Assembly (NCBI GenBank): GCA_050255815.1
Contig: JBLMVJ010000035.1
Location: forward strand, 10,727-74,726
Source of the DNA: Candidatus Levyibacteriota bacterium
Lineage (GTDB): Bacteria; Patescibacteriota; Microgenomatia; Levybacterales; GWA1-39-11
Direction: 5' to 3'
DNA: 64,000 nucleotides
The notes beneath the pieces are model-generated. The model worked only from the letters and a program-made list of their open reading frames with translations. It did no database searches and was not told the origin of the DNA. Position 1 is the first letter of the stretch; every line of letters starts with the position of its first letter. The translations under genes and the position numbers were made by a program. This document shows positions 1,091 through 53,533 of this stretch, in pieces.

Positions 1091-1270
1091 CAGAATTGTT
1101 CCAAAAAAGTGAAAAAAAGAAAAACATTTCTTATAAAAGAATAAAATAATTTGTTAGAAGAGGGATTAAAAAAAGAAATTATGAGGCTAAATTTGACCAA
1201 TTGTTAGAAAAAGCCACAATAGTAGTTTTTATCCTTGACATTATACTTTTACACTGATAAATTTAGACAC

Positions 1271-3373
1271 ATGGGAAATAATTCAACCATTATTCTTCTT
1301 AAGAAAATATCTGTTTGGGTACTTTCTTTTGTACTATTCTTCTTCCCTCTTCTCTTTTTAGTAAACGCAACTGATCCATTCCTTTTGCCAAAACAGGTAT
1401 TCCTGGTTATGGCATCTGTAGTCCTGCTGATCCTTTGGAGCGTTATCATGGTCTTTGAAAAAAAGATTATGATCCGGACCAGTCCGTTTAATCTTCCGGC
1501 AGGACTCTTTACTTTAGCAGTACTTATTTCAGCATTCCTCTCCCGGAATATGTATGATTCACTTGCTCTTGCTATTCCGGTGTTGGCTTCTTTCATACTG
1601 TATTTTGTGGCACAAAACACCATATCAAATAAAAAGGATTTACTGTTTGTCTTATCTGCTCTTCTTTTGGGAGGAGCCGTGTCTTCCCTTATCTCAGTTT
1701 TGTACTACCTGAAGATTTACTTCCTTCCTATTCCGGCAATCCAAAGCCAGTACTTCACTACCTTTGGTTCTCCTATCCAGCACATTATTTATATAGTACC
1801 GCTTTTGATTGTTGCCGCCTACTTCCTGTCTAAAGAAGTGAGAGGGAGAAAACCTGAAGCAAACTACAATACTATATTATTTGGCGGACTTACCGGCACC
1901 CTTCTCATCTCTGCCGTCCTCTTAATAGTACAGGTAGTAACTGCACCACAAAAACCACTCTTACTGCCATACACATTTGGCTTCCAGATTGCTACCGCAG
2001 CTATTTCCCAGGACACCACACGCTTCTTAATTAGCCTGCCGTTTGGGTCCGGATTTGGCACATTCTTATCAGACTTTACCAGGTTTAAACTTCCTGATAT
2101 CAATAATGGCCAGCTTTGGGCTGCATCCTTTAGCACTTCTTCTTCTTTTGTCCTGGAGCTTTTAACCACCGTAGGAGTAGTAGGACTTTTAACCTACTTA
2201 TTTATGATTGCCAAGGTATTAAAGAATAGGACAAAAGACACCACCCCATTATTCTTTGCACTGTTAGTAGTGTTCTTAGTCTCATTCTTCCTGCCGCTTT
2301 CTATCATCTCCCTTACCCTTATCTTTATTTTAATGGCGCTGTTTACCAGCACTTTATTCCTGGACCACAGCAAAAATGTATATGATATAAGCCTTTCTAT
2401 AGTAGCTCTAAAACATGGCCTATTCTCTATAGAGGAAACGTCAGGCGCACCTAAGAAAGCTTCAGAATCTTCAAAGGTGCTTCCGATTATTGTAGCGCTG
2501 GTTATCATTCTGGTTGGCGGGTATACCGGGTATCTCTCATTCAAACTCTTGTCTGCAGACATGAAGATGGCAGACTCTTTGTCACAAAGCAAGAGGAACA
2601 ACGGCCAGGCTATTTATGACCTCCAGAGACAGGCGCTCATAGACTTCCCGTACCGCTCTGATTATTACAGGATCTTCTCCCAGATTAACCTGGCTCTTGC
2701 TAACTCTATAGCCGGTGCTGTCCCACAGGGATCTACCCCTTCCACTACGGCACAGGCAACTATTACGCAATTGCTGCAGCAAAGTATTGCAAACGGCAGG
2801 ACTGCAGTAGCCCTGGCTCCTATGAGCTCAGTAAACTGGGAAAACCTTTCCCAAATCTATAGGAGCTTAATAGGGGTAGGACAAAATGCGGGAGAATTTT
2901 CAGTGGCAACCATGAACCAGGCTATCATTTTAGATCCTTCCAACCCACTCCTGAGGGTAGAATTAGGGGGTATCTACTACCAGCTGCAGCAGTATGACGC
3001 AGCCCAAAACCAATTCCAGATTGCAATTAACCTGAAGCCTGACTTTGCAAATGCATACTACAACCTGGGCCATGCTCTTGAAGCAAAAGGAGATCTGAGA
3101 GGTGCAATAACCGCATACCAGGCAGCACAAAGCCTTACCACCAATGATAATGATAAAAAGAGGTTGGATTCTGAAATGGAAGTTATCCTGAAAAAAATTG
3201 GGACAGAGGTAAAACCGGGCACTCAGCCATCAGCAGCTGCTCCATCTGCAGACCAACCACCACTTGGAATAAGTACACCTTCAGCACAACTGCCTAGCCA
3301 AAAAGACCAGGTAAAATTACCTTCACCACCAACTGAAACTCAACCAACAGCCACACCTAAAACTACGAAATAA
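1271..3373 (+). CDS. Polytopic membrane protein with C-terminal TPR repeats and a Pro-rich tail; O-antigen ligase (Wzy_C)-like, paralog 1
   Basis: ORF 1235..3373; start moved to the ATG at 1271 downstream of a TTGACA(1224)/TAAATT promoter-like pair. About 10-12 hydrophobic helices over the first ~400 aa, then TPR-like 'AYYNLGHALEAKGDL', then a P/T/Q-rich C-terminus. The Wzy_C assignment is inferred from architecture only. Confidence 0.7.
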   Translation: MGNNSTIILLKKISVWVLSFVLFFFPLLFLVNATDPFLLPKQVFLVMASVVLLILWSVIMVFEKKIMIRTSPFNLPAGLFTLAVLISAFLSRNMYDSLALAIPVLASFILYFVAQNTISNKKDLLFVLSALLLGGAVSSLISVLYYLKIYFLPIPAIQSQYFTTFGSPIQHIIYIVPLLIVAAYFLSKEVRGRKPEANYNTILFGGLTGTLLISAVLLIVQVVTAPQKPLLLPYTFGFQIATAAISQDTTRFLISLPFGSGFGTFLSDFTRFKLPDINNGQLWAASFSTSSSFVLELLTTVGVVGLLTYLFMIAKVLKNRTKDTTPLFFALLVVFLVSFFLPLSIISLTLIFILMALFTSTLFLDHSKNVYDISLSIVALKHGLFSIEETSGAPKKASESSKVLPIIVALVIILVGGYTGYLSFKLLSADMKMADSLSQSKRNNGQAIYDLQRQALIDFPYRSDYYRIFSQINLALANSIAGAVPQGSTPSTTAQATITQLLQQSIANGRTAVALAPMSSVNWENLSQIYRSLIGVGQNAGEFSVATMNQAIILDPSNPLLRVELGGIYYQLQQYDAAQNQFQIAINLKPDFANAYYNLGHALEAKGDLRGAITAYQAAQSLTTNDNDKKRLDSEMEVILKKIGTEVKPGTQPSAAAPSADQPPLGISTPSAQLPSQKDQVKLPSPPTETQPTATPKTTK

Positions 3374-3375
3374 GT

Positions 3376-5523
3376 ATGGAAAGTAAAGATGTGCCGTCAA
3401 TAGTATCAAAGCTGCAGATAGGCGTGTTGTGCACCATGCTGGTATTATTCCCCTTAGCATTTATTCCTAACTCCACTGACTCATTTACCATGGGTAAGAG
3501 CCTAATCCTCATACTGGGGACTTCCCTTCTTATCCTGTTGTGGGCAATTGCATCTATATATAAGAAAGGCTTTGTCTATAAATCCAGCCCATTTAACCTT
3601 CCGGTTGCCCTTTTTGGCGTAGTGGTACTTATTTCCTCCCTGCTCTCCCGCAATATGTATGATTCTCTTGTTGCAGCTGTTCCCGTAGTCTTCTCTTGCG
3701 TATTGTACTTTACCATTTCTTATATGATAAGCAGCAGAAAAACACTTATTTTAGCTATTACCAGCCTTATTGCCGGCGGCGCACTGACTGCCCTTTTAAG
3801 TACCGCTTACTATCTGAAACTTTATTTCCTGCCTATTCCGGGTATTAATAACCAGTACTTTTCCCCGTTTGGGTCAGGCGTACAGGAAGCAATTTACCTG
3901 ATTGCCCTTCTCATGTTCCCGCTTTTCTCCCTATTAAGACAAACAAAGACCAGAAAGCTTACGGTTACGCAGGATTTCCTCATTGAAGCAGGTTTGGGAG
4001 GCGCACTTTTGATAGGGGTAATCTTTATTACCCTTTCCATCATTACTTCCCCAACCAAACCTATTATATTGCCATACACATATGGCTTGCAGATTGCAGC
4101 CGCTACTATTAGCCAGGATATCTCGCGCCTCTTTATCTCATTCCCATTTGGATCCGGCTTTGGCACGTTCTTAAATGACTTTGCCCGCTTCAGACTGCAG
4201 GAGCTGAACGCAAACACTACGTTTGCTACCGCCTACCCATCCTATTCATCATCTTTTGCCCTGGAGCTGATGACTACCACCGGCATCTTAGGCATCCTTT
4301 CTTACCTCTTTATAGTGTTTAAGGCCTTAAAAACCCGCATGAAAGACAGCAATCCATCTTACTTTGGCCTGGTTATCTTATTTATTGTCTCATTCTTCTT
4401 ACCGTTTGGCCTTCCAACTATTGCACTGGTCTTTATTCTTTTGGGAGTCTATTCATCATCCTTATTCCTGGCAAATGACAGGCGGGTACATAATACCAGC
4501 CTCTCACTGGTTGCCTTTGACCAGGGAATTATTTCTACAGAGGATGTGTTGAGGAATGAGCGGGTTAAGTCTGAGAGTATTATCCTGCCGGTTCTTATCA
4601 CTATCTTAGTGGTACTAATAGGAGGATTTGCTTCATTTATGATGGTACGCCTGGTAGATGCAGACACCAAAATGGTTTCCTCTTTGGTTGTACCTGCCGG
4701 TAAGAAGCTCACCATCCAGCAGCAATATGACTTGCAAAGAAATGCGGTAAATGAATTCCCTTATAAATCAGACTACCAGAGGACATTCTCCCAGCTTAAT
4801 ATGAACCTGGCTAACTCTATTGCTGCCAGCCTGCCAAAAGGCGCTACCCCATCAGCAGTTGTACAGCAAAGCGTCAACCAGCTCTTACAGCAATCAGTAA
4901 ATTCAGCCAGAAGCGCTGCTGATATAGCACCGCTTACTTCAACCAACTGGTCCAATCTGGCACAAATTTACCGGAACCTGATAGGCGTGGGCCAGGGAGC
5001 TGACCAGTTTGCCATTGCAGCCATGAACCAGGCAACACTGTTAGACCCAACCAATCCATTCTTAAGGCTGGACTACGGTGGTATTTATTACCAGTTAAGC
5101 CAGCTGGATGCAGCCCAAAACCAATTCCAGATTGCCATTAACCTGAAGCCTGACTTTGCTAATGCCTATTACAATCTGGGCCATGTGATAGAGTCCAAAG
5201 GAGACCTTTCTACCGCACTTTCTCTCTACCAGACTACCCTTTCCCTGGCCGGAAACAATCCAACAGATAAAAAGAAACTCAGTGATGAAATAGAAGCATT
5301 GAAGAAAAAGATTAATGAAACAGCAGCTACTCAACAGCAGCAGACACCGGTAAACCTGCAGACCAGCGCAGGCCAGCAGCAACCTATTGGCATTAACGCT
5401 CCTTCAGCTCAATTTCCAGCACCTAGCAGGCCGGTAAAACTTCCTCCACCTCCTGGTGCCAGCGCTTCTCCGGAACCGTCTCCTTCGGCTGCTCCCAGGC
5501 CTACGGCCACCCCCACACAATAA
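3376..5523 (+). CDS. Polytopic membrane protein with C-terminal TPR repeats; O-antigen ligase (Wzy_C)-like, paralog 2
   Basis: Starts 2 nt after the stop of the preceding gene. Collinear similarity to paralog 1 (e.g. 'NMYDSL', 'FGSGFGTFL', 'QNQFQIAINLKPDFANAYYNLGH'). Confidence 0.8.
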   Translation: MESKDVPSIVSKLQIGVLCTMLVLFPLAFIPNSTDSFTMGKSLILILGTSLLILLWAIASIYKKGFVYKSSPFNLPVALFGVVVLISSLLSRNMYDSLVAAVPVVFSCVLYFTISYMISSRKTLILAITSLIAGGALTALLSTAYYLKLYFLPIPGINNQYFSPFGSGVQEAIYLIALLMFPLFSLLRQTKTRKLTVTQDFLIEAGLGGALLIGVIFITLSIITSPTKPIILPYTYGLQIAAATISQDISRLFISFPFGSGFGTFLNDFARFRLQELNANTTFATAYPSYSSSFALELMTTTGILGILSYLFIVFKALKTRMKDSNPSYFGLVILFIVSFFLPFGLPTIALVFILLGVYSSSLFLANDRRVHNTSLSLVAFDQGIISTEDVLRNERVKSESIILPVLITILVVLIGGFASFMMVRLVDADTKMVSSLVVPAGKKLTIQQQYDLQRNAVNEFPYKSDYQRTFSQLNMNLANSIAASLPKGATPSAVVQQSVNQLLQQSVNSARSAADIAPLTSTNWSNLAQIYRNLIGVGQGADQFAIAAMNQATLLDPTNPFLRLDYGGIYYQLSQLDAAQNQFQIAINLKPDFANAYYNLGHVIESKGDLSTALSLYQTTLSLAGNNPTDKKKLSDEIEALKKKINETAATQQQQTPVNLQTSAGQQQPIGINAPSAQFPAPSRPVKLPPPPGASASPEPSPSAAPRPTATPTQ

Positions 5524-10344: not shown

Positions 10345-10557
10345 TTGAAGACTAGACCGCCGCCGAAGGCACTTTCCTTGGGAAGCCCCAAAAAGGCAAG
10401 CCCAAAAAGCAAGGTAGTATCCCGCAAACGCGTAAGCGTGTTCGGAACTTGCTTTCTAATGCAGAAATGCACGGGAAGAAATTCCTGGATCCTTACCGGC
10501 CCTAGTTCATCCGAATTCTGGCTTTGCAAGCCAACAGCTCATGGAGAGATGCCATGA
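10345..10557 (+). CDS. Possible small, highly basic protein (70 aa, TTG start) in the island
   Basis: AGGAGG at 10333-10338, 6 nt before the TTG. Low-complexity, K/R/S/P-rich product; may be non-coding. Confidence 0.2.
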   Translation: MKTRPPPKALSLGSPKKASPKSKVVSRKRVSVFGTCFLMQKCTGRNSWILTGPSSSEFWLCKPTAHGEMP

Positions 10558-11990
10558 ATTGGACTGCGCTACTAGCGTGGGTGATGGACCCAGTCCGCAC
10601 CCTTGACGAACTTCGGCAGGCGCACCTTGCCCTGATCGGCCATCCCAACATGGGGAACCGCGTTCAGGTGCGTGCGCGCGTGAGGAACTACATCAATCTG
10701 ATGATCGCCACCCAAGGTGGAGGAGCTCCTGCTCCTTGGCACCCTGGCATGGGCGCTCCTGTGGTTCCTCCAACGCCAACACCTGGCCCTGCGCCCGTTC
10801 CTGGTCCTGGCCCTGCGCCCGTTCCTGGTCCTGGCCCTGCGCCCATCGTCCCGCTCGTTCCGGTTGTCGGCTATCGCCCACGCATGTGGACGTACCGCCG
10901 AATGATACGGAGAGCGCTAAACGAGGGCAACACCGCCTGGATGGATACCGAACTCACGGCATGGGGAGACCCTCCGGGAGTCGGCACTCCAGCACAGCGT
11001 GCGTACCGGCTCGAGAACTTCTCGAGGTCACGGCACGGGTGGAACCGCATCGGGCATGATATCCCGGAGCTTGTTCCGCCTGGCGCACCGGCACCGGCAC
11101 CCCGCCGACAGGTGGACTACGGTCCCCTTGGGTGGATCGCAGGTGCTCTGCTGATCGCAGCCGGCGCAGCCGTACTGTTCTTCGCCTTGATTCTGCCTCT
11201 CTCCAAGTGGGGATGGGACCAGAGCTTCGGCGACGACACGGCAGTGCAGCAGCCCGGCAACCAGCCTGGTAACCAGCCCGGCGGCAACAACGGCAACGGT
11301 AGCGGCAACGCGAACCAGCCTGGCAACAACGGCAACGGTAGCGGCAACGCGAACCAGCCCGGCAACCAGCCCGGCAATAGCGGCGTCATCAAGAACTTGG
11401 CCGACGGCCAGTTCCCCTGGACACCGCCCACACCGGGTACCGACCTTGGGAACGACAAGCAGTTCACCAGCACCATCATCGAGCAGGCCAAGCAGGGAGA
11501 CTGGATTCACAGGCTCTTCAACCCTGGCTTGTTCAACGCAGCCAATAACTACGGCGGAGCCGATTCTTGGGCTATTAGCCTGAACGTCGGTCCGAACGCT
11601 GGTGGCAGCTGGAAGGGCGAGGGAGTCTCGGGACGCTTCGTCTACCGTGCTGTGCAGAATCAGGTGGGTTGGTGCCTTGGCATCCTCACCTCGAAGACGT
11701 GGAACAACATCGACCTGAAGAGTCAACTCCTCAGCGGTTCAGACCCCAGTTTGCCGATCGGATTCAACGTCCGCATCGAACCAGGGTCTACCGTGATGGT
11801 GAAGACGAACTCAGGCGAGATCAAGTCCGGCGTCACAAGCGACATGGGTGATATCCAAGTCGTTCTGCCAGACAGCGGGCTGACCACCATCTGCACTGCG
11901 TTCAGCACTGCAGCACCTACGGGTGAAAGCCAGCTTTGGGTGGGACCTCGGGACCGCTCCAAGGACATCAACACGATCGACGCGCGGTAA
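10554..11990 (+). CDS. Hypothetical single-pass membrane protein (478 aa) with Pro-rich and QPGN/NGNGSGNA repeat linkers; high-GC
   Basis: ORF 10524..11990; likely start is the ATG at 10554, preceded by GGAGAG. Central TM helix 'GPLGWIAGALLIAAGAAVLFFALILPL'. Tandem DNA repeats at 10786-10857 and 11281-11358. Confidence 0.6.
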   Translation: MNWTALLAWVMDPVRTLDELRQAHLALIGHPNMGNRVQVRARVRNYINLMIATQGGGAPAPWHPGMGAPVVPPTPTPGPAPVPGPGPAPVPGPGPAPIVPLVPVVGYRPRMWTYRRMIRRALNEGNTAWMDTELTAWGDPPGVGTPAQRAYRLENFSRSRHGWNRIGHDIPELVPPGAPAPAPRRQVDYGPLGWIAGALLIAAGAAVLFFALILPLSKWGWDQSFGDDTAVQQPGNQPGNQPGGNNGNGSGNANQPGNNGNGSGNANQPGNQPGNSGVIKNLADGQFPWTPPTPGTDLGNDKQFTSTIIEQAKQGDWIHRLFNPGLFNAANNYGGADSWAISLNVGPNAGGSWKGEGVSGRFVYRAVQNQVGWCLGILTSKTWNNIDLKSQLLSGSDPSLPIGFNVRIEPGSTVMVKTNSGEIKSGVTSDMGDIQVVLPDSGLTTICTAFSTAAPTGESQLWVGPRDRSKDINTIDAR

Positions 11991-12410: not shown

Positions 12411-13211
12411 ATGAGCATATTAAAATCTGTCCTTTTCTTTATCTTATTTTTGGCTGTTGCAGCCGGGGCTTTCTATGGGGTAGCTGAGCCCCAAAACACC
12501 CTTATTTCTTCCGTAGGCCCTATGCAGCTGACTGCCGGAGGTGCAGGACTCAGCCTGTTCCAGGGAAGCACCGGGCAGTATTATGATTTCTCACCATTTA
12601 AAGATACGGTAACCTTCCAGAACACTACCACTAACGCGCTGGTTACTGCCCAGGATATCCAGTCAACCGGTTATAAAACTTCCCTAAAAGTACCGTTCAT
12701 ACAGAATCTATGGGAAACCTTTCTCTTTTACACAGGAGCAGACACCCCTTCCATGAGGTTTCTGACCGGCAAAAACATCACCTACTCCTCTACCATTAAA
12801 GCCAACAAATTAATAGTCACCAGGACTATTCAGGGGGAGAAAAATCCTATTACAAAAACTGATATGACCATTACCTTTCATGCTATGGATTTTGTGTTTG
12901 ACCGGACAGGAAATTTATATAATTATGTAGACCCTGGAACACAGTCATTCTTTGAGCAGACTTATAACAAAACCTTGACACCTCAGCTGAATGACACTTC
13001 TATCACTGTTATGGGAAATATTGTTTTTATTTATAACCCTAAAATTGCCGCCGTTATGGCTATCCAAACCGTAGGGAACCAGACTATTACGGTGGACCGG
13101 AATGAGAAAGTAATCAGGATTTCTGAAACACCAAAGGTAAAAAACAATATCTACCAGGATTCTCTGCAGGTAACCGTTTTAAACACGCCAAAGGAGGCTT
13201 TTAACCTATGA
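12411..13211 (+). CDS. Hypothetical secreted or membrane-anchored protein
   Basis: N-terminal hydrophobic signal/anchor 'VLFFILFLAVAAGAFYG'. No known motif. Confidence 0.6.
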   Translation: MSILKSVLFFILFLAVAAGAFYGVAEPQNTLISSVGPMQLTAGGAGLSLFQGSTGQYYDFSPFKDTVTFQNTTTNALVTAQDIQSTGYKTSLKVPFIQNLWETFLFYTGADTPSMRFLTGKNITYSSTIKANKLIVTRTIQGEKNPITKTDMTITFHAMDFVFDRTGNLYNYVDPGTQSFFEQTYNKTLTPQLNDTSITVMGNIVFIYNPKIAAVMAIQTVGNQTITVDRNEKVIRISETPKVKNNIYQDSLQVTVLNTPKEAFNL

Positions 13212-33460: not shown

Positions 33461-33615
33461 AAACCGATTTTGCTCCTCAGTCCTGGCCTTGACCTTAGGC
33501 GCGCAGTCCCAAAGGGGGACGAGCACCGCAAGTCAAGCAACTGGAATGGAAACAAAACAGTACAAATGTAGTAGATGATAAACCGGCTTTGCCCTTCAGT
33601 CCTGGCCTTGACCTA
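33461..33615. repeat. 35-bp imperfect direct repeats (AAACCGrtTTTGCyCyTCAGTCCTGGCCTTGACCT) at 33461-33495 and 33581-33615 flanking an 85-bp segment; the second copy is the 3' end of 5S rRNA
   Basis: Read directly. The enclosed segment begins TTAGGCGCGCAGT-hairpin-CGAGCACCGCAA, also seen at 44883-44922. Confidence 0.6.
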
Positions 33616-33719
33616 TCTTCCCATGTTGTGTAACAACAAAGTATTGTGAGCGCTGACGTGTTTCACTTCTCTGTTCGGAATGGGAAGAGGTGGGACCACA
33701 TCGCTCTAAAGACCAAGAC
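33599..33719 (-). rRNA. rrf: 5S ribosomal RNA
   Basis: Reverse complement contains GGTCCCACCTCTTCCCATTCCGAACAGAGAAGTGAAAC...CATGGGAAGATAGG. Helix I pairing GTCTTGGTC/GGCCAGGAC. Confidence 0.8.
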
Positions 33720-34000
33720 TCAAGAGCAAAACCGGTAAGATCCGAATCTACTCGAATAGTTTGGGGTAACTTCTAGGCTACCCCATTCTTCTCGAATATT
33801 TCGAATTAACATTAACAAACACTAGCGCATTCGAATTGATTCGATTTAAATTCGAACCATTCGAGAATGATTTCTTAGAATCCACGCTATTTGGATCGAC
33901 CTATTAGTACAACTTCGCTGAAACAGTTACCTGTCTTACACGTGTTGCCTATCAACCTGATGGTCTCTCAGGGGTCTAAAAGAGATCTTATCTTAGGGTG

Positions 34001-34033
<33 letters not shown>

Positions 34034-34268
34034 CATGGAAATCTAGCTACCCAGCAGTGCACTTGTAAGTACAACTGGCACACCAGGGATTTCCTCACCC
34101 CAGTCCTCTCGTACTAGGGGCGACTCCCTTCAAATCTCAAACGGTTGTCCTGGATAGAGTCCGAACTGTCTTACGACGTTCTTAACCCAGCTCGCGTACC
34201 TTTTTAACTGGCGAACAGCCAGACGCTTGGGAGCTTCTCCACCCCCGCGCTAAGATGAGCCGACATCG

Positions 34269-34699
34269 CTGTCAATCCAATCAGTAATTAAGAAAGACTT
34301 AAAAACTTAAAACTGATGGTGATACTCTTGTTACCAAGAGCCTCTGACTATACCTTCATCCGCCAACTGGCGGAGCTAGTCGTATGATACAGATTATAAA
34401 TTTCTCTTTATGAGATGAATCCATATCTCACCCTCTCACCTATGCTGGTGAGGGGTTCAGTCGATAGGGTCCAAAAGAAATTTAAAATTCAGAAGTTAAA
34501 ATTCAGAATTAAATTCTTAATTCTGAAATCTGAATTCTTAACTCTATTTGAACCTCGGTATTACCCTCTTGTGTTCAGAAAGTAGGGTTTCACCGATTTG
34601 GACTAGTTATTTAAATTATTAGTACCTTGTTTTTTGACTCAAATACTAATAAATACAGGCAAGAGTATTACTACTCAGGCGCCCCGATATTTTCATATA
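34269..34699 (-). other. Putative group I intron (~431 nt, no ORF) in 23S domain V at the GGCACCU|CGAUGUCGGCUC junction (E. coli ~2500 region)
   Basis: Exon sequences that are contiguous in E. coli are separated here. The 5' exon ends in U and the insertion ends in G. Confidence 0.6.
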
Positions 34700-34742
34700 A
34701 GGTGCCAAACCGCATCGTCGCTGTGGACGCTTGGATGCGATC

Positions 34743-34775
<33 letters not shown>

Positions 34776-35229
34776 AAGCTACGTCCCAACCACTAAGGAA
34801 CGCAGGATCACTAACACCTGCTTTCGCACCTGCTCGACTTGTAGGTCTCGCAGTCAAGCTGGCTTGTGCGTTTGCACAATACGCTCCGATTTCCGTCCGG
34901 AGTTAGCCAACCTTTGTACGCCTCCGTTGCACTTTAGGAGGCAACCTCCCCAGTTAAACTGCCCACCAGACACTGTCTTTTAGCCGTATTTTTATGCGGC
35001 ATTAAAGTAATGCTCACTCATCTTAAAGAGAGGTATTTCATTGATGACCGAAGTCTCCCTCCTATACTAAACAGTTAAAATAAGCTTGCAAATGTCAAGC
35101 TACAGTAAAGCTCCCGGGGTCTTTTTGTCCTAGGACAACCAGGCCGCGTCTTCACAGCCATCTCAATTTCGCCGTGTAAATGTTCAAGACAGTTACTCAG
35201 TCGTTCTACCTTTCGTGCGGGTCGGAACT

Positions 35230-35548
35230 CCATTGTTTTAATGTTCCAACATGGAACCTCACAGTCGCCTGTGAGATCGGACTATATCTTTCCCTTACCA
35301 AATTGGTGAGGGATCTAGCGTCTAGTCTCTGAGGGTTTTCCGATAAATCGGAATCTTCCCTGCTGATTGGCTCCACCAAGCAGATTTTTACTCTTACGAG
35401 TACTGTTGGATACTGAGCTGTTCCAGCAAATAGCTAGATTTTACACTCATTTAGGTTAACGATTGTGTTCTTACGTGACTGTTTTGCTTGTTCCTGATGT
35501 GTATCCCGATTAGATCGGGACTCGGGCAAGTTGATTTGACCCAAACCA
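35230..35548 (-). other. Putative group I intron (~319 nt, no ORF) in 23S at GUCGGGU|AGUUCCGACC (E. coli ~1951 site)
   Basis: Exons flanking the insertion are contiguous in E. coli. The 5' exon ends in U and the insertion ends in G. Confidence 0.6.
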
Positions 35549-37359
35549 ACCCGACAAGGAACTTCGCTACCATAGAACAGTTATAGTTACTGCTGCCGTT
35601 CACCGGAGCTTTAGAAAGCGGCTCCACCTTGCGGTTTCACCACCCACTATTGACTTACCGGCACTGGGCAGGTGTCAGCCCCTATACGTTACCTTTCGGT
35701 TTTGCAGGGACCTGTGTTTTAGATAAACAGTCGCTAAGTAATCTTTTGCTTAACCTGGATGTTACTCCAGGCAGGGCATCTCCCATAGGTTACGCCCAGC
35801 TTTTGTTGCCGAGTTCCTTGAACATTTGTCTCACGGTCGCCTTAGTCTACTCGACCAATCCACCTGTGTCGGTTATGCGGTACGGCAAAATATAGCACTC
35901 CTCACGAATCTTTTCCTGAAGACTGAAACTTACGATCCTCACCCTACTTTCTTGCGATTTCAGATTTGCATTCGCCACTTAATTAAACACTTTGACGGAT
36001 TTGCCCATCAAAACTATCTTATGGCTTGGACCCTGTTTACAGGGCGATCCTTTCCACTCTTGTCCATCCTTGAGTAATAACGCACTATACTCTGTAGCAG
36101 AATATTAACTGCTTGTCCATCCGGCTACCCCGCGCTTTATGACGGGCCACCGTTAGGAGCCGACTAACGCTGCGCTGACTTACATTGCGCAGCAAACCTT
36201 GGATTTTCGGCGGACGCCGTTCTCAGGCGTCATTCGCTACTCATGCCGGCATTCTCACTTGTAAACGCTCCACCATACCTTACAGTACAGCTTCGCTGCA
36301 TTTACGACGCTCCCCTACCACTTGCTCCGATAAATCGGAGTCAAATCTCCATCGTCGGTATTAAGCTTAATCCTCGATCATTTCCGGCGCCATTCTCCAA
36401 TGTCGACTAGTGAGCTGTTACGCTTTCTTTAAAGGATGGCTGCTTCTGAGCCAACCTCCTAGCTGTCTATGGAAAATGACTTCCTTATCAACTTAGCTTA
36501 AATTTAGAGACCTTAGATGGGAGTCTGGGCTGTTTCCCTTTAGACCCACGAGCTTAGCCCCGCAAGTCTGACTCTCTATTAAGTTTTTACGGTATTCGGA
36601 GTTTGATTGATCCTGAAAAGTTGCCTCTCCAGAGACCATTCAGTGCTCTACCCCCGTAAAAACATACAAAAGGCTATACCAAAATATATTTCGGGGAGAA
36701 CCAGCTATCTCCAGGTTCGTTTAGTATGTCACCCCTTACCACAAGTCGTCTCAGATCATTGCTGCGATCACGAGTTCGGGCCTTCCTCATCCTTTCGAAC
36801 AAGTTCACCCTGCTCATGGTAAGCTCACCTGGTTTCGGGTCTTTTGCAATGCGCATTTAGGTATCCCAGTTAGAGATCGCTTTCACTATGCCTCCCCCCT
36901 CACCTTTCCAACGAAAATTCCAACCTTTGTTTTAAATCGAGCTTGTTTCGATAATATTTCAAAGTGGTAATCCTCATTAGAATGGTGAGGGGTTAGACTG
37001 CGCAATACAAAAACTCACCGGCTCATTCTTCAATAGGCACGACGTTATACCCTTGCGGGCACTTCGTCTGCTTGTTAGCTAATAGTTTCAGTAACTCTTT
37101 CATTCCCCTCCCGGGGTGCTTTTCACCTTTCCCTCGCGGTACTAGTTCACTATCGGTAGATGTTGATATTTAGCTTTGGAGCGTGGTCGCCCCGGCTTCC
37201 CACAGGGTTTAATCGTACCCCATGGTACTCAGGAACAGGCAAGAAGTGAAAATCATTTCAAATACGGGACTATCACCCTCTTTGGTCTCTTTTTCCAAAA
37301 CGTTCTTCTATGATTTCCATTTGTGACTTCTTTTGCATTTAAGCAAGCCGTCCTACAAC

Positions 37360-37660
37360 CCCCCTCACCTTTTTATCACTAACCTTTTTAAAAGTTCTTG
37401 CCAAGCTTTTGCGCGCTTCTTAAGCGCCTGCTCTCTTCTAAAAGCTAATTTATAAGAAGTATATGCTTCATAATAAATAAGCTCCCATGGCAAAAACTTT
37501 TTAGTATATATAGACTTTCCTTTATTATGGTCCGTAAATCGAGTTTTAAGATCTTTTGTTGAACCAATATAAAACTGGTCGAACTTTACACTCTTAAGAA
37601 TATACGTGTAGAACATAAGTCTATTATAGTTATTTAAGTTAGGAACAAAAAGGTGAGGGG
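37360..37660 (-). mobile_element. Hairpin-bounded intervening sequence in 23S domain I carrying a GIY-YIG nuclease ORF; ~15-bp terminal inverted repeats CCCCCTCACCTTTTT / AAAAAGGTGAGGGG
   Basis: Replaces the variable region after AGCGAACG (E. coli ~270-350). Flanking rRNA blocks identified on both sides. Confidence 0.6.
37365..37616 (-). CDS. Small GIY-YIG nuclease superfamily protein (COG2827-like, 83 aa) encoded inside the 23S rRNA gene
   Basis: 'YTYILKS...FYIGSTKDLKTRFTDHNKGK...PWELIYYEAY...RREQALKK' matches the small URI-domain endonuclease family. Same strand as the rRNA. Confidence 0.75.
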   Translation of the reverse strand: MFYTYILKSVKFDQFYIGSTKDLKTRFTDHNKGKSIYTKKFLPWELIYYEAYTSYKLAFRREQALKKRAKAWQELLKRLVIKR

Positions 37661-38222
37661 TTTGAGCTGTTCCGCGTTCGCTCGCCGCTACTGACGGAAT
37701 CTCTGTGATTTCTTTTCCTCGGACTACTTAGATGTTTCAGTTGGTCCGGTATCCCGCCGACTACTAATATATTAATCTTGCGACTAATAACTTCATAGCA
37801 GGCTCCCAGTTAAACTGGGGGGTTTCCCCATTCGGACACCACCGGATCATAATGTCTTCGGCCATTCCCCGGTGATTTTCGCGAGCCAGATGCGTCCTTC
37901 TTCGGTCAACACCTCCTAGGCATCCACTATTAGCATGAATCAAATAGCGTAGATTCTAAAAAACCAATTCATTAAAAACCATGCCTCGGCTTGAAACATG
38001 GAAAATCCGCCACCCGGCGGATTTTTTTAATCCTCCGTCCCGATTAGATCGGGACTTCGGCCTAGTTGTTTGTTTGTAATTCTTCCAATTATTAATGAGC
38101 AAAACGCTTTTTGCGTTGCCCTCGGATGTAATCCGAGGCCATATCTCTCCTGTACTCGTTTCTCGCCGGGAAGTATATTGCCCTTCCACCAGCGAGGAAC
38201 CAATACAAGAAAACTAAAAAAG

Positions 38223-45613: not shown

Positions 45614-47032
45614 CTAGAGCTCCAGACCCATCTGCGGGCTTGTCTTCTTCTTATCTATATGCAATATTCCATCTTCTGCATTCCATATTGCTACTTTTCC
45701 GTATTCTCCGTCAAATCCCGGGATTATTGAAATATTCCTGGACCTTACCTTCTCTACTCCTTCCGCTACGTCATTTCCCACCAGTTTTCTTATTTCATCA
45801 AGAGAGGTCCTTAAAAGGATTTCATGTTCTGTGCTAAACTTCTGCACTAAAGAGTCAAATACGGCCAAGACCTTTTGGGATGATGGCATGGAATGTATAG
45901 CCTCTGCAATGACCTCCAATAATGGGACCAGATTTACAGATGGAGGCCTGATTGCTTTAACGTCCTGTATCCATACCACCCCATTTCCGTCTTGTTTCAG
46001 GGTAAAATTCTGGGAAGGGTTTGAAGCCAGGTCCTCTACCCTATGCATTACTCCTACCGTTAAAGGCCTGCGGCATACCGGACATAATTTATCTTTTGGT
46101 GTTTCATCAGGTGAATAGGAGACTTTACAATTCCGGTGGCCGGTATAATGGTACTTACCCTCTTCAGGATAGAACTCTATGGTATAGCCCAGCTCAAACA
46201 CCTTTTCTTTTCCCCGTACCAGCCCATTCATGATGTTGCTATACGTAATATCCTCATCTTTAATTCTTGATTCCTGATTCTTGCTTCTTAACACTGTTGC
46301 TTCCCGGCCCATTTTCTCCAAAGAATGCGCATCAGAAAAAGAAACAATAGAGCGGGTGTCCAGTTCTTTAATCCGCCAATTCATAGATGGATCTGAAGAA
46401 AGCCCGGTCTCTATGGCAAAAATGTATTTAGCATACTCTCCAAAACAGTCTGTAATATGGTCATACCCTGATTTAGACCCATATAAAGAAAACCATGGTG
46501 TCCAGACATGGCATGGGATCAAAACTATACGGGGATTAATTTCAAAAAGCATTTCAGCCAGGTTTCTGGAACTGATCCCTAAAATTGGCCTACCATCAGA
46601 GGACAAGTTTATTCCCCGGCTTACCAGGCCTTTATTAACCTTCTCTGCCGTCTCAAAATCAGGAGACAGGATAAGGTTATGGATACGGTGGACTTTTCCG
46701 TTTTCTGAATAGATAGCTGCCACCTCTACTGAAAGCATAAAATAAGGACCTAAGAAAGGCTGGGGAGGCAATGCATTTGCAGGAATAAACCGGTCTTTTA
46801 ACTTGAATATACCCGGCTGGAATTCCTCAAGCTGGGAAAAGACTTCCTTAAACCAGACAGGATGGGTAAAGTCAGCCACTGAAAGGATATTAATCCCCTT
46901 CTTTCTGCCCCACAAATACATATTGGGGAGGTTCATGCGGGGAGAAACTGCACGTGAGAATCTGGAATGAAGATGTAGGTCTAAGACTAGTTCCATGCAC
47001 CTCATTAAAGCATGGAAAATTCTAAGATTCAA
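45614..47032 (-). CDS. PHP-domain protein, endonuclease Q-like (TIGR00375-like) with zinc ribbon
   Basis: N-terminal 'LDLHLHSRFSRA' PHP metal-binding motif. Internal 'CPVCRRPLTVGVMHRVEDL' C-x2-C. The size is compatible with the EndoQ family. Assignment tentative. Confidence 0.4.
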   Translation of the reverse strand: MNLRIFHALMRCMELVLDLHLHSRFSRAVSPRMNLPNMYLWGRKKGINILSVADFTHPVWFKEVFSQLEEFQPGIFKLKDRFIPANALPPQPFLGPYFMLSVEVAAIYSENGKVHRIHNLILSPDFETAEKVNKGLVSRGINLSSDGRPILGISSRNLAEMLFEINPRIVLIPCHVWTPWFSLYGSKSGYDHITDCFGEYAKYIFAIETGLSSDPSMNWRIKELDTRSIVSFSDAHSLEKMGREATVLRSKNQESRIKDEDITYSNIMNGLVRGKEKVFELGYTIEFYPEEGKYHYTGHRNCKVSYSPDETPKDKLCPVCRRPLTVGVMHRVEDLASNPSQNFTLKQDGNGVVWIQDVKAIRPPSVNLVPLLEVIAEAIHSMPSSQKVLAVFDSLVQKFSTEHEILLRTSLDEIRKLVGNDVAEGVEKVRSRNISIIPGFDGEYGKVAIWNAEDGILHIDKKKTSPQMGLEL

Positions 47033-47630: not shown

Positions 47631-47924
47631 ATGAATTCTTCTTATGAAAAAGTTTACATGGCAACAAGGCAAATCCCAAAAGGGAAAGTTACTACCTATG
47701 GAGCCATAGGCAAGAAGCTTAATATGTCTCCCCGGGTAGTAGGACATGCGCTTCACGCCAATCCTTATGAAGGTGACGTTCCCTGCCACCGGGTGGTAAA
47801 CCGTGACGGACGAGTAGCGCCTAACTTTGCCTTTGGAGGGAAAGATATCCAAAAAAAACTACTTGAAGCGGAAGGAGTTATTTTTCAAGACCAACTTCAC
47901 GTGAAGCCGGAATTCATTATCTGA
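47631..47924 (+). CDS. Methylated-DNA-[protein]-cysteine S-methyltransferase DNA-binding/active-site domain protein (Ogt C-terminal-like, 97 aa)
   Basis: 'PCHRVV' active-site motif and a helix-turn-helix 'TTYGAIGKKL'. Confidence 0.8.
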   Translation: MNSSYEKVYMATRQIPKGKVTTYGAIGKKLNMSPRVVGHALHANPYEGDVPCHRVVNRDGRVAPNFAFGGKDIQKKLLEAEGVIFQDQLHVKPEFII

Positions 47925-48626: not shown

Positions 48627-50399
48627 TTATTTCTTTTGCGCTTTGAAGATTTCTTCTACTTCTTGCAGGGTGGTTGCGTCTTCCGGCTTTTTGTCATCCC
48701 TAAATTTTTCTAACCTGGGAAACCGCAAAGCATAGCCCGGCACATCTACGTCAAATGCTGACCCTGATTTGGAAGGCTTCATACTGCGTCCTGCGGTATG
48801 CACGGGGGATCGGGTCAACTCATCAGCCTTAATTTCTACCACTATTTCCGGGTTTACCCACACATCCGGCTCCAGCCATTTATCTACTTCAAACAGTACT
48901 GGCTTGTGGCTTGCCTTAATCCTCTCTGCCCTCCTGTGCAGCTCTTTCCATTCTTCATCAGTCAGTCCGGTTCCCACCTTTGCTATAGTTTCAAATTTAT
49001 CCTGTTTCTCATTGTAAATCCCTATCAAAAACGCTCCTATCCCAAAAGACGTCCGCTTTCCCCGTCCTGAATAATACCCCATGACTACACAGTCCACCGT
49101 GTCTTCCAGTTTTGACTGGTATGACCGTTTCAGCTTTATCCAATTCCAGCCCCTGGCGCCCGCCTGATACGTACCGTCTAGTTTTTTAGCCAGGATTCCC
49201 TCCAACCCCCGGGAAATGGCATCATCAAAAAAGTTTTCTATTTCTTTTGCATCCCCCAGAACCTGCTCTTCTGCCTGATAGATAGTCTTTCCTTCTTTAA
49301 TGATTCTAGAAACTGCCTTCCTGCGGTCTTTATATGCTTCAGGGATATAATTTTTTCCATTCAGGTACAGCAGGTCAAAAACCATCAGCTTCAGGGGAAT
49401 CTTTTTTGCCATTTCTTCTATGTCATACTTCCGCTTTCTTTGGGCGGTCAGCTGGAACGGAAGATATTCATTTGTTTCCGGATTGTAGGCAATTGCTTCC
49501 CCCTCCAGAATCACTTCATCCGCATCTATTTGGGAGACCAGCCCTTCCTCTACATCCGGGTACATAAAGGTAACCTCTTCAAGATTTCGCGTGAATAGCT
49601 TTACTCTAAACCCTTTCCCCTTTTCCCTCTTCAGGTGCGCCTGTAGCCTAAATCCGTCAAATTTTGGCTCTATAGCGCATTCCCCTATCTTATCTACAAT
49701 TTCCTGCCCTGAAGAAAGACGCTCTGCGCGGGCCATAAGGATGGGGGTAAAAACTGATGGCTTTATATGTGATAAGCCCTTCAAGCCATCCTCTTTTATA
49801 GTTTTTCCTATTATTCCCAAATCAGGCCGGATGTTATATGCCCGCTCAATTTCCGGTCTGGCTTTCTTATCTTTCCCCAGCATCCAGGATAAAGAATCCA
49901 GAACGGTCATATCAGAAAAGCCCAGGCGGAGCTTTGCCACCGGAATCCTGGAAACAAATCTGCGGGATAACGGATCTAAATCCTGCAAAAGCTCTGCCAT
50001 AAGACCTATTTTTTTCTCTACAGAACCCGCTCCTCCACTTTCTGCAACCTGCCTCAACACTTCAAACACCTGGGAAACCGTACCATCTCTTCCCATTTTT
50101 GTTCCCCCCAGGCTTTGGGCTATCTCACCCAAATCCCCAACTTTTTTATATTCTGCTGCAGCTTTTTCATCTGAAACAGCAAAAGCCTGGGCTATAGCTC
50201 TTACCATCATCTTGTCAGCCATCCCAAACTCTAACGGTTCAAAAAGCGGCGCTACCCTTCCCTGCAAAAGATACATTACTTTATCAAAAACGTCCGCCGG
50301 CACTTTTTCAAAAAGTTCTGAGAGAATGAGAATCATGTCATTGCGGGAAGCAGTGTTTTCCAGTTTTTCTAAATGGATTGATAGCTCTGAGAATTTCAT
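48627..50399 (-). CDS. lig: ATP-dependent DNA ligase
   Basis: Motif I 'EPKFDGFRLQ', adenylation and OB domains, 590 aa. Confidence 0.95.
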   Translation of the reverse strand: MKFSELSIHLEKLENTASRNDMILILSELFEKVPADVFDKVMYLLQGRVAPLFEPLEFGMADKMMVRAIAQAFAVSDEKAAAEYKKVGDLGEIAQSLGGTKMGRDGTVSQVFEVLRQVAESGGAGSVEKKIGLMAELLQDLDPLSRRFVSRIPVAKLRLGFSDMTVLDSLSWMLGKDKKARPEIERAYNIRPDLGIIGKTIKEDGLKGLSHIKPSVFTPILMARAERLSSGQEIVDKIGECAIEPKFDGFRLQAHLKREKGKGFRVKLFTRNLEEVTFMYPDVEEGLVSQIDADEVILEGEAIAYNPETNEYLPFQLTAQRKRKYDIEEMAKKIPLKLMVFDLLYLNGKNYIPEAYKDRRKAVSRIIKEGKTIYQAEEQVLGDAKEIENFFDDAISRGLEGILAKKLDGTYQAGARGWNWIKLKRSYQSKLEDTVDCVVMGYYSGRGKRTSFGIGAFLIGIYNEKQDKFETIAKVGTGLTDEEWKELHRRAERIKASHKPVLFEVDKWLEPDVWVNPEIVVEIKADELTRSPVHTAGRSMKPSKSGSAFDVDVPGYALRFPRLEKFRDDKKPEDATTLQEVEEIFKAQKK

Positions 50400-50968
50400 T
50401 TTTTAACGGGAGGTTTTACTCTAAATACCATGGTTCCACTTTTTTCTAACCTTAATGGTTCGAGAATTGTTGACCATGTGGGAGTTAATTTCCATTTATC
50501 TGCACCAATCTCTTCAGGTCTTATTTGTCTACCTTTTATAGAAAAAAATACATTCAGTACTTCCGCACGTGATCTATTATTTGTGTTTGCTAATATTATC
50601 CCTGTTTCTGTACCTTGCATACTTGCAAGTGCTCCTTCAATGCCAAAAATGCCGATTGTGCCTCTCACCTTTTTTCCAGCCCTAATACCGGTTAATAGTT
50701 TTGCTTCTCCTGGGGTTGGGTTTAAAATAAAACCTTTAGAGGTAAGCATCATGTCAGGATCGATATTATAAGCATCTTTTACGTCCATAGAATTTCCTTC
50801 AAGCTCAGTTGCACCATCTACAATATTTACCTCGCGGTCTTTAATAAGAATCTTTACCCCACTCCCAATAGCGGCATGCTCGATTGCATTGAGTGCAGTT
50901 TCCCTATCTCTCCAATCAAGTTCCTGCAAATGTGCAAAGTCTAATTCTTCTTGTAATACATCTACCAT
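50396..50968 (-). CDS. Hypothetical protein translationally coupled to the DNA ligase gene (190 aa)
   Basis: 4-nt overlap with the lig start. Gly-rich 'GTIGIFGIEGALASMQGTETGIILANTNN'. No confident family. Confidence 0.6.
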   Translation of the reverse strand: MVDVLQEELDFAHLQELDWRDRETALNAIEHAAIGSGVKILIKDREVNIVDGATELEGNSMDVKDAYNIDPDMMLTSKGFILNPTPGEAKLLTGIRAGKKVRGTIGIFGIEGALASMQGTETGIILANTNNRSRAEVLNVFFSIKGRQIRPEEIGADKWKLTPTWSTILEPLRLEKSGTMVFRVKPPVKK

Positions 50969-51013: not shown

Positions 51014-52045
51014 TTAAGCCATGACGTATTTCACGCCTTTTGTCACGCCTTTCTTCTTCAGTATCCCTTTTTTCACCAAATCCTGCACTTCCCTTAACAC
51101 CGTATCCTCAGATACCATAGGAAACAAAGAACTGTATGCCTTATTCTCTATATAGCCGTTTTGTTTTATATACTCTATAACTTTTAATTGCCTATCAGAA
51201 AGCATAATAGGCCCGCCCAGCTTTTTGCGCAATCCTAAATCTGCAGAAATAGACTCAATTTTTGCTTTTATTTTAGACAGTTCTGAAGACAAGCATTCGG
51301 TGAAATATGCAAGCCATACCGTCTGGTCTCCCTTAAACTTCTCCACACTCTGGAGCGCGTCATAATATTCTTTGGGATTATTATCAAAGTGTTCTTCCAG
51401 GGAGAAAAACTGGCGGATGTCATACCCTTCTTTAAACAAAACCAGGGTAGAGAGCGCGCGCCCTACCCTGCCATTCCCGTCTAAAAATGGATGGATCCGG
51501 ACAAATTCATAATGCACTACACCGGCCTTTAATACCGGATGCATATCTGATTCTTCCTGAATAAAGGACACCAGTTCTTTTACCTGCCAGGGAACCTCTA
51601 TCACTTTTGGCGGGCGGAAAGAAACCTCTCCGGTTATAGAATTTTTAATGACTACATCTTTATCCCGGTAGTCCCCTGATTTATCCAGAGGTAAAATGTT
51701 TGCCACCACTATCTTATGCAGCTGGCGAATTGTGTCCTCATCTATGCGCTTGCCCATAGTCCGCCCCATATATTCCATGACCTTCCGGTAGTTAATGACT
51801 TCCTGTACGTCCCTATTCCGCGCCGCAATAGTTTCACCGTCTAAGATTTTTTGGACCTGGATAAGGGACAATTCATTCCCTTCTATATGGGTACCAAAAT
51901 GGACTGAGCGGACCACTGCCTCTTCCTGGAACTTTTTCTCCCAATAGGGAAGCAATGGGGCATTTTCTATAACTTCCTTTGCCGCCTCTGTACTACCAAT
52001 ATTTTTAAGGATTGCGTTGGTGATAGAAAACGTGGGTGCGTACAT
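51014..52045 (-). CDS. Fic family protein (AMPylase/phosphocholine transferase family) with C-terminal winged-helix domain
   Basis: Fic motif 'HPFLDGNGRVGRAL'. Confidence 0.9.
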   Translation of the reverse strand: MYAPTFSITNAILKNIGSTEAAKEVIENAPLLPYWEKKFQEEAVVRSVHFGTHIEGNELSLIQVQKILDGETIAARNRDVQEVINYRKVMEYMGRTMGKRIDEDTIRQLHKIVVANILPLDKSGDYRDKDVVIKNSITGEVSFRPPKVIEVPWQVKELVSFIQEESDMHPVLKAGVVHYEFVRIHPFLDGNGRVGRALSTLVLFKEGYDIRQFFSLEEHFDNNPKEYYDALQSVEKFKGDQTVWLAYFTECLSSELSKIKAKIESISADLGLRKKLGGPIMLSDRQLKVIEYIKQNGYIENKAYSSLFPMVSEDTVLREVQDLVKKGILKKKGVTKGVKYVMA

Positions 52046-52075: not shown

Positions 52076-52342
52076 TTACGAACGCTTTTCTTCAAGTCGT
52101 CTGAGAAGACCTGAGAGCTGGTAGGTCACAAAGACCGCAATAATAGTAACAATAATGGCATAGAGAAGTAGCGAGATGAGTCCTGCATTTCCGGGAAGAT
52201 ATTTCTTCACATAACTATTTACAACTTCCTGAATAAGACTATTCCAGGCAAGAGCTGAAACCAGCCCAAAACCTGCAGTTGCCAGAGTCAGCATCTGGCG
52301 GACAATCTCTATGTGAAGCTTTTGCTTTTTTTCACTTGCCAT
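52076..52342 (-). CDS. Hypothetical small membrane protein (88 aa, two TM helices)
   Basis: Hydrophobic segments 'LTLATAGFGLVSALAW' and 'LISLLLYAIIVTIIAVFVTY'. Confidence 0.5.
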   Translation of the reverse strand: MASEKKQKLHIEIVRQMLTLATAGFGLVSALAWNSLIQEVVNSYVKKYLPGNAGLISLLLYAIIVTIIAVFVTYQLSGLLRRLEEKRS

Positions 52343-52486: not shown

Positions 52487-53533
52487 ATGACGGTTACACA
52501 TCTCACTCTTCAACACCTGAGGAATCATCTGAAACGCTCATTTGAATTCAAAGATATCACTATTATCATAGGCCGGAACACTGCGGGCAAAACAAATATC
52601 CTGGAGGCGCTCTCTATCCTCTCCCATGGTACTTCCTTCCGGGCAGTACGGGATGCAGATGTAATCCAGGAGGGACGTGATTTTGCAAAAATAGAAGCAG
52701 ATGTTTCAACTACTGATGACAAAGCCAGGCTACATGCTATTTTTGCATTACACGGAACTTATTTATCTAAAAAGTACCAGGTGAACGGCGTTGCCCGGTC
52801 TCTACGTACATTTTCCGAATATTTCTACACAGTCCTTTTTACCCCCCAGGATATAGAAATAGTTACTGATACGCCTTCCCTGCGCCGCCGCTACATAGAT
52901 TCTATCCTAACCAAATCCCACAAAGAATACCGTTCTGCCCTCTCTAAATATGAAAAAGCGCTGCGCCAAAGAAACCGCATGCTGCATGATGCAAAGATAG
53001 GCCGGAAAGAATACAGACGTGCGGATTATGAATTCTGGGAGAACCTACTCATAGAACATGGAACAATAATTCATCGGTTCCGAGAGGTATTTGTAGACTA
53101 TGTTAATAATTTCAAAAAGGAAGTTTTCCAATTTGAAATGTTTTATGACCACAGTATCATATCTACTGAGCGCCTGTTTAAGTATCATTTTGAAGAAGCT
53201 GCTGCAGGTGTGACGTTAGTGGGACCACAGAGGGATGACTTTAAATTCTTCTTCCCGGGTACCAAGAAGGAAATCAAGGAGTTCGGTTCCCGCGGTGAAC
53301 AGCGGCTCACCATCCTTCAGCTCAAACTAATAGAAATTAGCTACTTGCTACACGCTACCGGCCAAAGGCCTATCTTACTTTTAGATGACATATTCTCAGA
53401 GTTGGATGCGGAGAACATAGATATGATTTACCATTTTATTGAGGACCAGCAAACCATTATCACTACCACGCACCGGGAATTTGTCCCCAAAAAAATCCTC
53501 AAGCAAGAGAATTTAGCGATAATTGAACTTTAG
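52487..53533 (+). CDS. recF: DNA replication and repair protein RecF
   Basis: Walker A 'GRNTAGKTNILEAL', signature 'GEQRL', Walker B 'LLLDDIFSELD'. Confidence 0.9.
   Translation: MTVTHLTLQHLRNHLKRSFEFKDITIIIGRNTAGKTNILEALSILSHGTSFRAVRDADVIQEGRDFAKIEADVSTTDDKARLHAIFALHGTYLSKKYQVNGVARSLRTFSEYFYTVLFTPQDIEIVTDTPSLRRRYIDSILTKSHKEYRSALSKYEKALRQRNRMLHDAKIGRKEYRRADYEFWENLLIEHGTIIHRFREVFVDYVNNFKKEVFQFEMFYDHSIISTERLFKYHFEEAAAGVTLVGPQRDDFKFFFPGTKKEIKEFGSRGEQRLTILQLKLIEISYLLHATGQRPILLLDDIFSELDAENIDMIYHFIEDQQTIITTTHREFVPKKILKQENLAIIEL

Follow-up and report, generated by a model that had tools for sequence, protein, structure and literature searches.

We analyzed a 64,000-nt stretch of a Candidatus Levyibacteriota genome (contig JBLMVJ010000035.1, positions 10,727 to 74,726; hereafter, the window), in which a minus-strand gene cluster encodes a Fic protein, a small protein of no assigned family, and an ATP-dependent DNA ligase. 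Read 5' to 3', the cluster consists of a 343-amino-acid (aa) Fic open reading frame (ORF; 51014..52045), a 190-aa ORF whose product is called X here (50396..50968), and a 590-aa ligase ORF (48627..50399). Fic and X are separated by 45 nt. The ATG of the ligase and the TGA of X share 4 nt (ATGA, 50396..50399), exactly as the original prediction for this locus had it; the junction reads ...AAAAAATGAAATTC... on the coding strand. The 20 nt before the ligase ATG (GTAAAACCTCCCGTTAAAAA) contain no purine-rich Shine-Dalgarno sequence. With stop and start codons that overlap on the same strand and no ribosome-binding site of its own, the junction is a candidate for translational coupling, as judged from the sequence. 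Junctions with a 4-nt ATGA overlap are commonplace in operons, and a second example occurs in the window at 13208-13211.

The 590-aa ORF encodes a complete three-domain ATP-dependent ligase of the Lig1/archaeal type. It matches DNA_ligase_A_N (PF04675; E = 3e-31), DNA_ligase_A_M (PF01068; E = 3e-50), and DNA_ligase_A_C (PF04679; E = 2e-22), all above the cut-offs, and it scores 419 bits against TIGR00574 (cut-off, 218). Motif I (KxDG) reads EPKFDG, and the best PDB match is 2hiv ("Thermostable DNA ligase"; E = 4.7e-121, full length), which we take to be the replicative ligase of S. solfataricus. Three domains and full-length similarity are thus shared with archaeal replicative ligases; unlike these, the window ligase is encoded in a bacterial genome of the candidate phyla radiation (CPR), downstream of a Fic gene, and its position is taken in related lineages by an NAD+-dependent LigA. 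The locus also resembles the Ku-LigD nonhomologous end-joining and Lig-Lhr-exonuclease-PdeM operons, in which an ATP ligase is co-transcribed with an accessory gene, and it shares with them a neighborhood of repair genes (RecF, Ogt-like, and PHP/EndoQ-like). However, the window ligase is of the full three-domain Lig1/archaeal type, not LigD or LigC, and its partner, in contrast, is dispensable and replaceable.

The 343-aa ORF matches Pfam Fic (E = 1.3e-20) and PADLOC SoFic (E = 2.8e-55 over residues 39-332), and its nearest PDB sequences are 4rgl, FICD, and SoFic. All 29 orthologues examined keep the active site HPFLDGNGRVGR and the N-terminal inhibitory sequence THIEGN. In the inhibitory motif, whose Glu is E55, the Ser/Thr lies at -3 rather than -4. 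The C terminus gives weak helix-turn-helix (HTH) matches. Given the Fic motif HxFx(D/E)GNGRxxR, the inhibitory helix, and a winged HTH (wHTH), the protein is classed as a class II, SoFic-like Fic AMP-transferase. Its score of 73 bits against the NCBIfam SoFic equivalog model (NF046030) falls below the cut-off of 550, and it is therefore a SoFic-like relative rather than a SoFic orthologue.

X is identical to a hypothetical protein listed at NCBI from a Candidatus Levyibacteriota metagenome-assembled genome. Scanned singly, X and 22 family members had no match in Pfam, NCBIfam, PHROGs, or PADLOC, and a PDB sequence profile search with X returned noise alone (E above 0.3). A HMMER scan of 1.84 billion representative proteins produced 11 matches to X, including 1 spurious match and 2 tandem X-X fusions (345 and 375 aa). 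The spurious match, P0005, is eukaryote-like and repetitive, with 14 matched stretches over 3442 aa; it was rejected as a relative because its similarity to X is a low-complexity artifact. The AlphaFold2 (AF2) prediction reached a predicted local distance difference test score (pLDDT) of only 50 with 2 sequences, and a 12-sequence alignment yielded a usable mixed alpha/beta model (pLDDT, 88; predicted template modeling score, 0.86). A Foldseek search with this model returned nothing at an E value of 0.001 or better from the PDB or BFVD, so that X may provisionally be regarded as a novel fold relative to these two collections.

The description of X as unassigned in the original prediction therefore holds, as does the lack of a match, by sequence and by fold, to known ligase partners (Ku, LigD-PE, PdeM, Lhr/Lhr-B, and exonuclease). 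Sequence and structure searches revealed no similarity of X to any DNA-repair family, and X did not turn out to belong to a housekeeping family without linkage to a ligase. The sequence string on which that prediction drew, GTIGIFGIEGALASMQGTETG, corresponds to residues 103-123 of X; the label "Gly-rich" is not a meaningful feature, given the marginal difference between 8.9% Gly in X and 6.9% in the long ORFs of the window.

In the family alignment (A4), one residue is invariant (R96; 50681-50683) and one is near-invariant (E30; 50879-50881), and there are no others of either kind. The ratio of nonsynonymous to synonymous divergence (dN/dS) of X is 0.08-0.17 in unsaturated genome pairs, indicating purifying selection. 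Together with the confident fold predicted from 12 sequences, this range establishes X as a real gene. Its family is an orphan one, restricted to Levyibacteria. Family members span 160-200 aa and are acidic throughout (pI 4.5-6.0), which argues against direct DNA binding. The nonsynonymous divergence (dN) of X is 1.6-10 times that of Fic and 1-5 times that of the ligase in unsaturated pairs, and up to 24 times overall in comparisons of the L026/L027 type (loci are denoted by L and a number); between L001 and L023, for example, dN is 0.314 for X, 0.032 for Fic, and 0.062 for the ligase. Fast evolution under constraint is a profile typical of antitoxin or sensor modules. IMG/VR scans gave no match to X or to the Fic clade, and a phage origin is without support.

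Fic followed by a ligase is an ancient conserved unit. A ligase scan of one genome per GTDB species recovered 40 loci; 32 bacterial ligases with at least 44% identity were treated as orthologues, and a Fic gene lies directly upstream of 29 of them (25 loci from the GTDB scan and 4 obtained via protein look-ups). In the reciprocal scan, which covered metagenome contigs with a Fic alignment, 15 relatives with at least 41% identity had enough downstream sequence; 14 are followed by a ligase (12 by an ATP ligase and 2 by an NAD+ LigA) and 1 by neither. Among about 45 Fic relatives under 41% identity, neither ligase was found downstream. The two LigA cases (L067:4001-7075 and L070:3508-6906) have Fic proteins 45% and 42% identical to that of the window, a downstream protein with PF01653, PF03120, HHH, and BRCT domains, and different flanks (PilB, HolB, Fic, LigA, and Pth). 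In a neighbor-joining tree of Fic built without bootstrap, all ligase-linked proteins group in a single clade, within which the LigA-linked pair is nested. These observations suggest that one ligase class displaced the other in situ while the adjacent Fic was retained, and the Fic-ligase link across this switch, which is seen in two contigs from one lineage, is suggestive but not proven.

A wider gene order, i.e., AA-kinase, carbohydrate kinase, RecF, DUF5654, Fic, ligase, Ogt, and PHP, is also inherited, and adjacency alone is therefore weak evidence within Levyibacteria. The stronger argument is that the Fic-ligase adjacency persists across changed flanks and a changed ligase class. A literature search returned no paper that ties Fic to CPR ligases or to the operon of an ATP-dependent ligase; no Fic is known to be linked to DNA ligation, and the core Fic-DNA-ligase operon has not been described before. 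The neighborhood check proposed with the original prediction thus confirmed that linkage to the ligase is kept, but the deeply conserved neighbor is Fic, which that prediction had not mentioned.

The position between Fic and the ligase is a variable slot. In the 25 loci from the GTDB scan, it is occupied by (i) a member of the X superfamily (12 loci), (ii) a single-domain receiver (REC; 5 loci), or (iii) nothing (8 loci). All of the approximately 25 X-family genes found anywhere lie in this slot, and every recovered context whose contig extends far enough reads Fic (343-346 aa), X, and ligase (586-596 aa), even when X identity falls to 20-27%. L017 carries two consecutive X paralogues, and X-X fusions occur in two lineages. 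Divergent X alleles were tied to the superfamily via transitive or leave-one-out hidden Markov model searches (E = 1e-7 to 1e-17), and alleles that look unrelated occur in near-identical genomes (e.g., L029 versus L028/L038, with Fic 97% identical).

The REC occupants (L019, L027, L030, L045, and L041) are CheY-like. Four match PF00072 with E values of 1e-13 to 1e-17 and that of L045 with 1e-6, just under the gathering score; the characteristic D, D, S, and K residues, including the phospho-acceptor Asp, are kept. REC occupancy in sister genomes suggests that the slot carries regulatory input. X itself is not homologous to these proteins: a receiver identity was rejected for it, given no Pfam match to PF00072, an hhalign probability of 0.2% against the slot REC proteins, and a different order of secondary-structure elements. 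The slot is empty in, e.g., L018, L025, L032, and all Gottesmanbacteria-type loci. In four more distant metagenomic relatives (L062:5045-5257, L066:1977-2190, L068:5063-5276, and L071:809-1017), a Fic-ligase gap of about 210 nt encodes a 61- to 67-aa peptide that has two hydrophobic segments resembling transmembrane (TM) helices and is 28-41% identical across the four loci.

The REC and empty states are scattered among X states on a neighbor-joining tree of Fic plus ligase that carries no bootstrap values. Between L019 (REC) and L023 (X), the DNA is 86-90% identical up to the Fic stop codon, homology is zero across the slot, and identity returns 5 nt before the ligase ATG. The pair L027 and L026 displays an exact X/REC replacement as well; the flanks across both pairs are 81-90% identical, and the exchanged segment lies at positions of about 4440-5000 in each. 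The swap is thus an exact cassette replacement bordered by the Fic stop codon and a point 5 nt before the ligase ATG. The spacing from Fic to slot gene to ligase lies between -11 and +59 nt at almost every locus. In the distant relative L041, REC follows Fic by 14 nt, and two genes on the opposite strand intervene before the ligase, which is 1.27 kb away; the inserted segment (L041:3820-4961, minus strand) encodes a GGDEF-type (GGEEL) protein and a 102-aa ORF.

The ATGA junction is kept whichever gene lies upstream, i.e., X, REC, or, in L025, Fic itself. The overlap therefore belongs to the ligase 5' end and does not count as evidence for a partnership between X and the ligase, and the coupling that the original prediction had read as a sign of such a partnership loses that meaning. 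The linkage claimed there survives in part: every detectable X member is directly upstream of a ligase, but X is not "the" partner, sister genomes having an empty slot or REC in its place.

We tentatively favor a reading in which X is an interchangeable regulatory or antitoxin-like (signal-input) subunit acting on Fic, and we regard this role as possible rather than probable. X, encoded in the middle of a Fic(-wHTH)-X-ligase operon, would act on the autoinhibited class II Fic AMP-transferase, which it may bind or regulate. Slot genes are exchanged by recombination, with the Fic stop codon and the ligase ATGA as exact limits. Co-expression of the ligase would reflect its membership in the same ancient operon, and the co-translation of X with it follows from the operon architecture. 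X is not an obligate partner of the ligase; nor do we think that it is a DNA-end-processing partner, and we would at most infer an effect of X on that enzyme. A role on Fic is favored because the slot is hypervariable and exchanged as an exact cassette, because X evolves fast under purifying selection, and because the proteins that replace X, a phospho-receiver and a small membrane peptide, are both implausible as DNA-repair enzymes. It is also favored because the slot gene of L041 stays with Fic when the ligase is displaced, because X is acidic, and, by analogy, because of the precedent of AS1.

The E. coli SoFic protein (EcSofic) is toxic and is neutralized by AS1, a 47-aa protein encoded immediately downstream, which was not obtained in soluble form (PMC12249575). 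SoFic is a dimer that AMPylates EF-Tu and constitutively de-AMPylates it, and it binds its own promoter through its wHTH (bioRxiv 10.64898/2026.07.09.737422). These two papers set a precedent, by analogy, for a small gene with a function downstream of a SoFic-type Fic, and promoter binding suggests a route by which Fic could co-regulate the genes of its own operon. Like SoFic, the window Fic combines a Fic domain and a C-terminal wHTH with an HPFxDGNGRxxR motif and an N-terminal inhibitory Glu, and in both cases a small unannotated gene lies directly downstream on the same strand. X thus has the position of AS1, and neutralization of Fic by X may be envisaged by analogy. The two small proteins, compared by position and description alone, differ in that AS1 is 47 aa and insoluble, whereas X, at 160-200 aa, yields a confidently predicted globular model. 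EcSofic is located on a defense island, whereas the window Fic is a core, syntenic gene across Microgenomates, always with a DNA ligase downstream of it.

The class I pairs VbhT-VbhA and FicT-FicA likewise combine a Fic enzyme with a small, separately encoded, fast-evolving protein, and X has its near-invariant Glu (E30) in an N-terminal helix. Class I Fic antitoxins are about 60 aa, are encoded upstream, and supply the [S/T]xxxE[G/N] helix that is absent from the toxin. In contrast, the window Fic has its own Glu, and X is encoded downstream and is three times larger. The conserved N-terminal motif of X is [ST]-P-x-E-[HNAES], with a Ser/Thr-to-Glu spacing of i+3, which departs from the inhibitory motif [S/T]xxxE[G/N] that Engel et al. 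reportedly defined in 2012. Size (160-200 aa), downstream position, and motif spacing led us to reject X as a class I antitoxin of the VbhA/FicA type. The locus is a variant, not seen before, of the pattern in which a Fic enzyme is accompanied by a separately encoded small modulator.

Besides this motif spacing, several observations weigh against a modulator of Fic. Fic carries its own inhibitory Glu (THIEGN), and the slot is empty in many relatives; an antitoxin is thus not strictly required. Fic proteins are 96-98% identical across X/REC swaps, and a comparison of Fic and ligase dN across swaps among X, REC, and no gene revealed no consistent signal of co-adaptation and no acceleration in either gene. 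Fic behaves as a core syntenic gene and not as a mobile toxin, and all X genes lie equally near to Fic and to the ligase. Finally, ten ORFs sampled downstream of other SoFic-like genes, from the Fic relatives under 41% identity, are mutually unrelated and give no sign of a general downstream partner.

X might instead be a lineage-specific accessory of the ATP ligase, such as a replisome or repair adaptor or a modulator of nick sealing, produced in stoichiometric amounts via translational coupling. Every X-family gene ends between 11 nt inside and 52 nt before the ligase start, most of them with ATGA and without a Shine-Dalgarno sequence, and X occurs nowhere else among the 1.84 billion representatives. 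The natural clamp partner of the archaeal ligase is absent from bacteria, and with an archaeal-like ligase (2hiv) an adaptor is conceivable. Nevertheless, we consider this role unlikely. In close relatives whose ligases are 70-75% identical, X is missing or REC takes its place, more distant orthologues have nothing or the two-TM peptide, and the overlap, as noted above, comes with the ligase. In addition, X is acidic, fast evolving, and unlike any known ligase partner, and the ligase is not accelerated after swaps.

Equally improbable in our assessment is that X is a functionally unrelated passenger and that the Fic-ligase junction is merely a recombination-permissive site between two highly conserved genes. 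The spread of nonhomologous occupants (X, REC, and the two-TM peptide) and empty states over the tree, the exact replacement mediated by flanking homology, and the lack of a co-adaptation signal in Fic or the ligase fit this explanation, as does the wide synteny, which indicates that much of the linkage is inherited. However, all of the approximately 25 X-family genes are in one slot, where operon-tight spacing and purifying selection are kept, and three unrelated small proteins at one intra-operon position of a streamlined genome suggest selection for "something." An experimental precedent also exists for a functional small gene downstream of SoFic (PMC12249575).

A broader proposal, which we would put forward only with considerable doubt, is that a distinct CPR Fic-wHTH clade is dedicated to the DNA ligase of the cell, whichever its cofactor class, with X, REC, and the two-TM peptide as interchangeable signal inputs and X as a new fold gating an AMP-transferase that acts on DNA replication or repair. 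Such a Fic might control ligase expression via its wHTH, have the ligase as a substrate for AMPylation or de-AMPylation, or process abortive AMP-DNA intermediates. Very unlikely is a role of X as a bridging adaptor through which the ligase, or some other replication protein, is presented to Fic for AMPylation or de-AMPylation, the three products forming one unit: X does sit between both genes, its duplications and fusions fit a dimeric partner such as SoFic, and the survival of the Fic-ligase adjacency through changes of flanks and of ligase class (L067/L070) hints at a functional link, but the class switch comes from two LigA contigs of a single lineage, the known SoFic target is EF-Tu (GyrB and ParE being targets of other Fic proteins), and most clade members have no slot gene.

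The genes that surround the Fic-X-ligase operon include several with repair functions, as the original prediction had noted. RecF (52487-53533; SMC_N match) lies beyond Fic. On the other side are a 97-aa Ogt C-terminal domain protein (47631-47924, plus strand; PF01035, E = 1e-25) and a PHP/TIGR00375-family protein (45614-47032; 144 bits, under the family cut-off), whose orthologue in L001 carries PF27218. The Ogt-like protein consists of the C-terminal DNA_binding_1 domain alone, with an intact PCHR active-site motif and no N-terminal domain. Between RecF and Fic, a small membrane protein of the DUF5654 family is encoded on the minus strand (52076..52342; PF18898, E = 1.3e-19). Its gene lies 30 nt 5' of Fic and is co-oriented with it in the window and in L036, and in relatives, where it is a conserved neighbor, it is usually divergent from Fic. 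This orientation looks like a local inversion that may add DUF5654 to the operon, and transcription of the unit in the window genome may begin with DUF5654.

In L001, L019, L023, L024, L025, L026, L027, L015, L021, and L032, a promoter-like element, TGTATAATACAATAA...TTCAAAA, is kept upstream of Fic, at 40-100 nt from its start. We regard it as a candidate -10 box with a possible operator for the Fic wHTH. In the window, DUF5654 intervenes and the element does not occur in this form. A promoter/terminator scan of the operon gave counts equal to those of shuffled controls.

Three further features of the window lie apart from this cluster. A 23S rRNA gene (33883-37949, minus strand), adjoined by a 5S rRNA gene (33600-33717), is 4067 nt long against a 2925-nt model; a group I intron (80 bits) is located inside it at 35258-35526, and about 0.8 kb more of insertion is unexplained. 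A gene at 10524-11990 (plus strand) has 60% GC against 43% GC for the genome; its 488-aa product has tandem repeats rich in Pro/Gly and Gly/Asn/Gln, one hydrophobic segment, and no Pfam match. Tandem paralogues of about 712 aa (1235-3373 and 3376-5523, plus strand) have C-terminal TPR repeats and N-terminal regions of 550 aa without a Pfam match.

Few bacterial class II Fic proteins have an assigned physiological role, and the Fic-ligase locus bears on what such proteins do. One Fic clade keeps a ligase downstream across deep divergence, changes of flanks, and a switch between ATP- and NAD+-dependent enzymes, with a hypervariable cassette in between. The locus thus offers a way into AMPylation control of ligation and replication in ultra-small bacteria and into the function of an orphan fold. 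Even if the slot genes were unrelated passengers, it would still be a clean natural case of exact gene-for-gene cassette exchange inside an operon.

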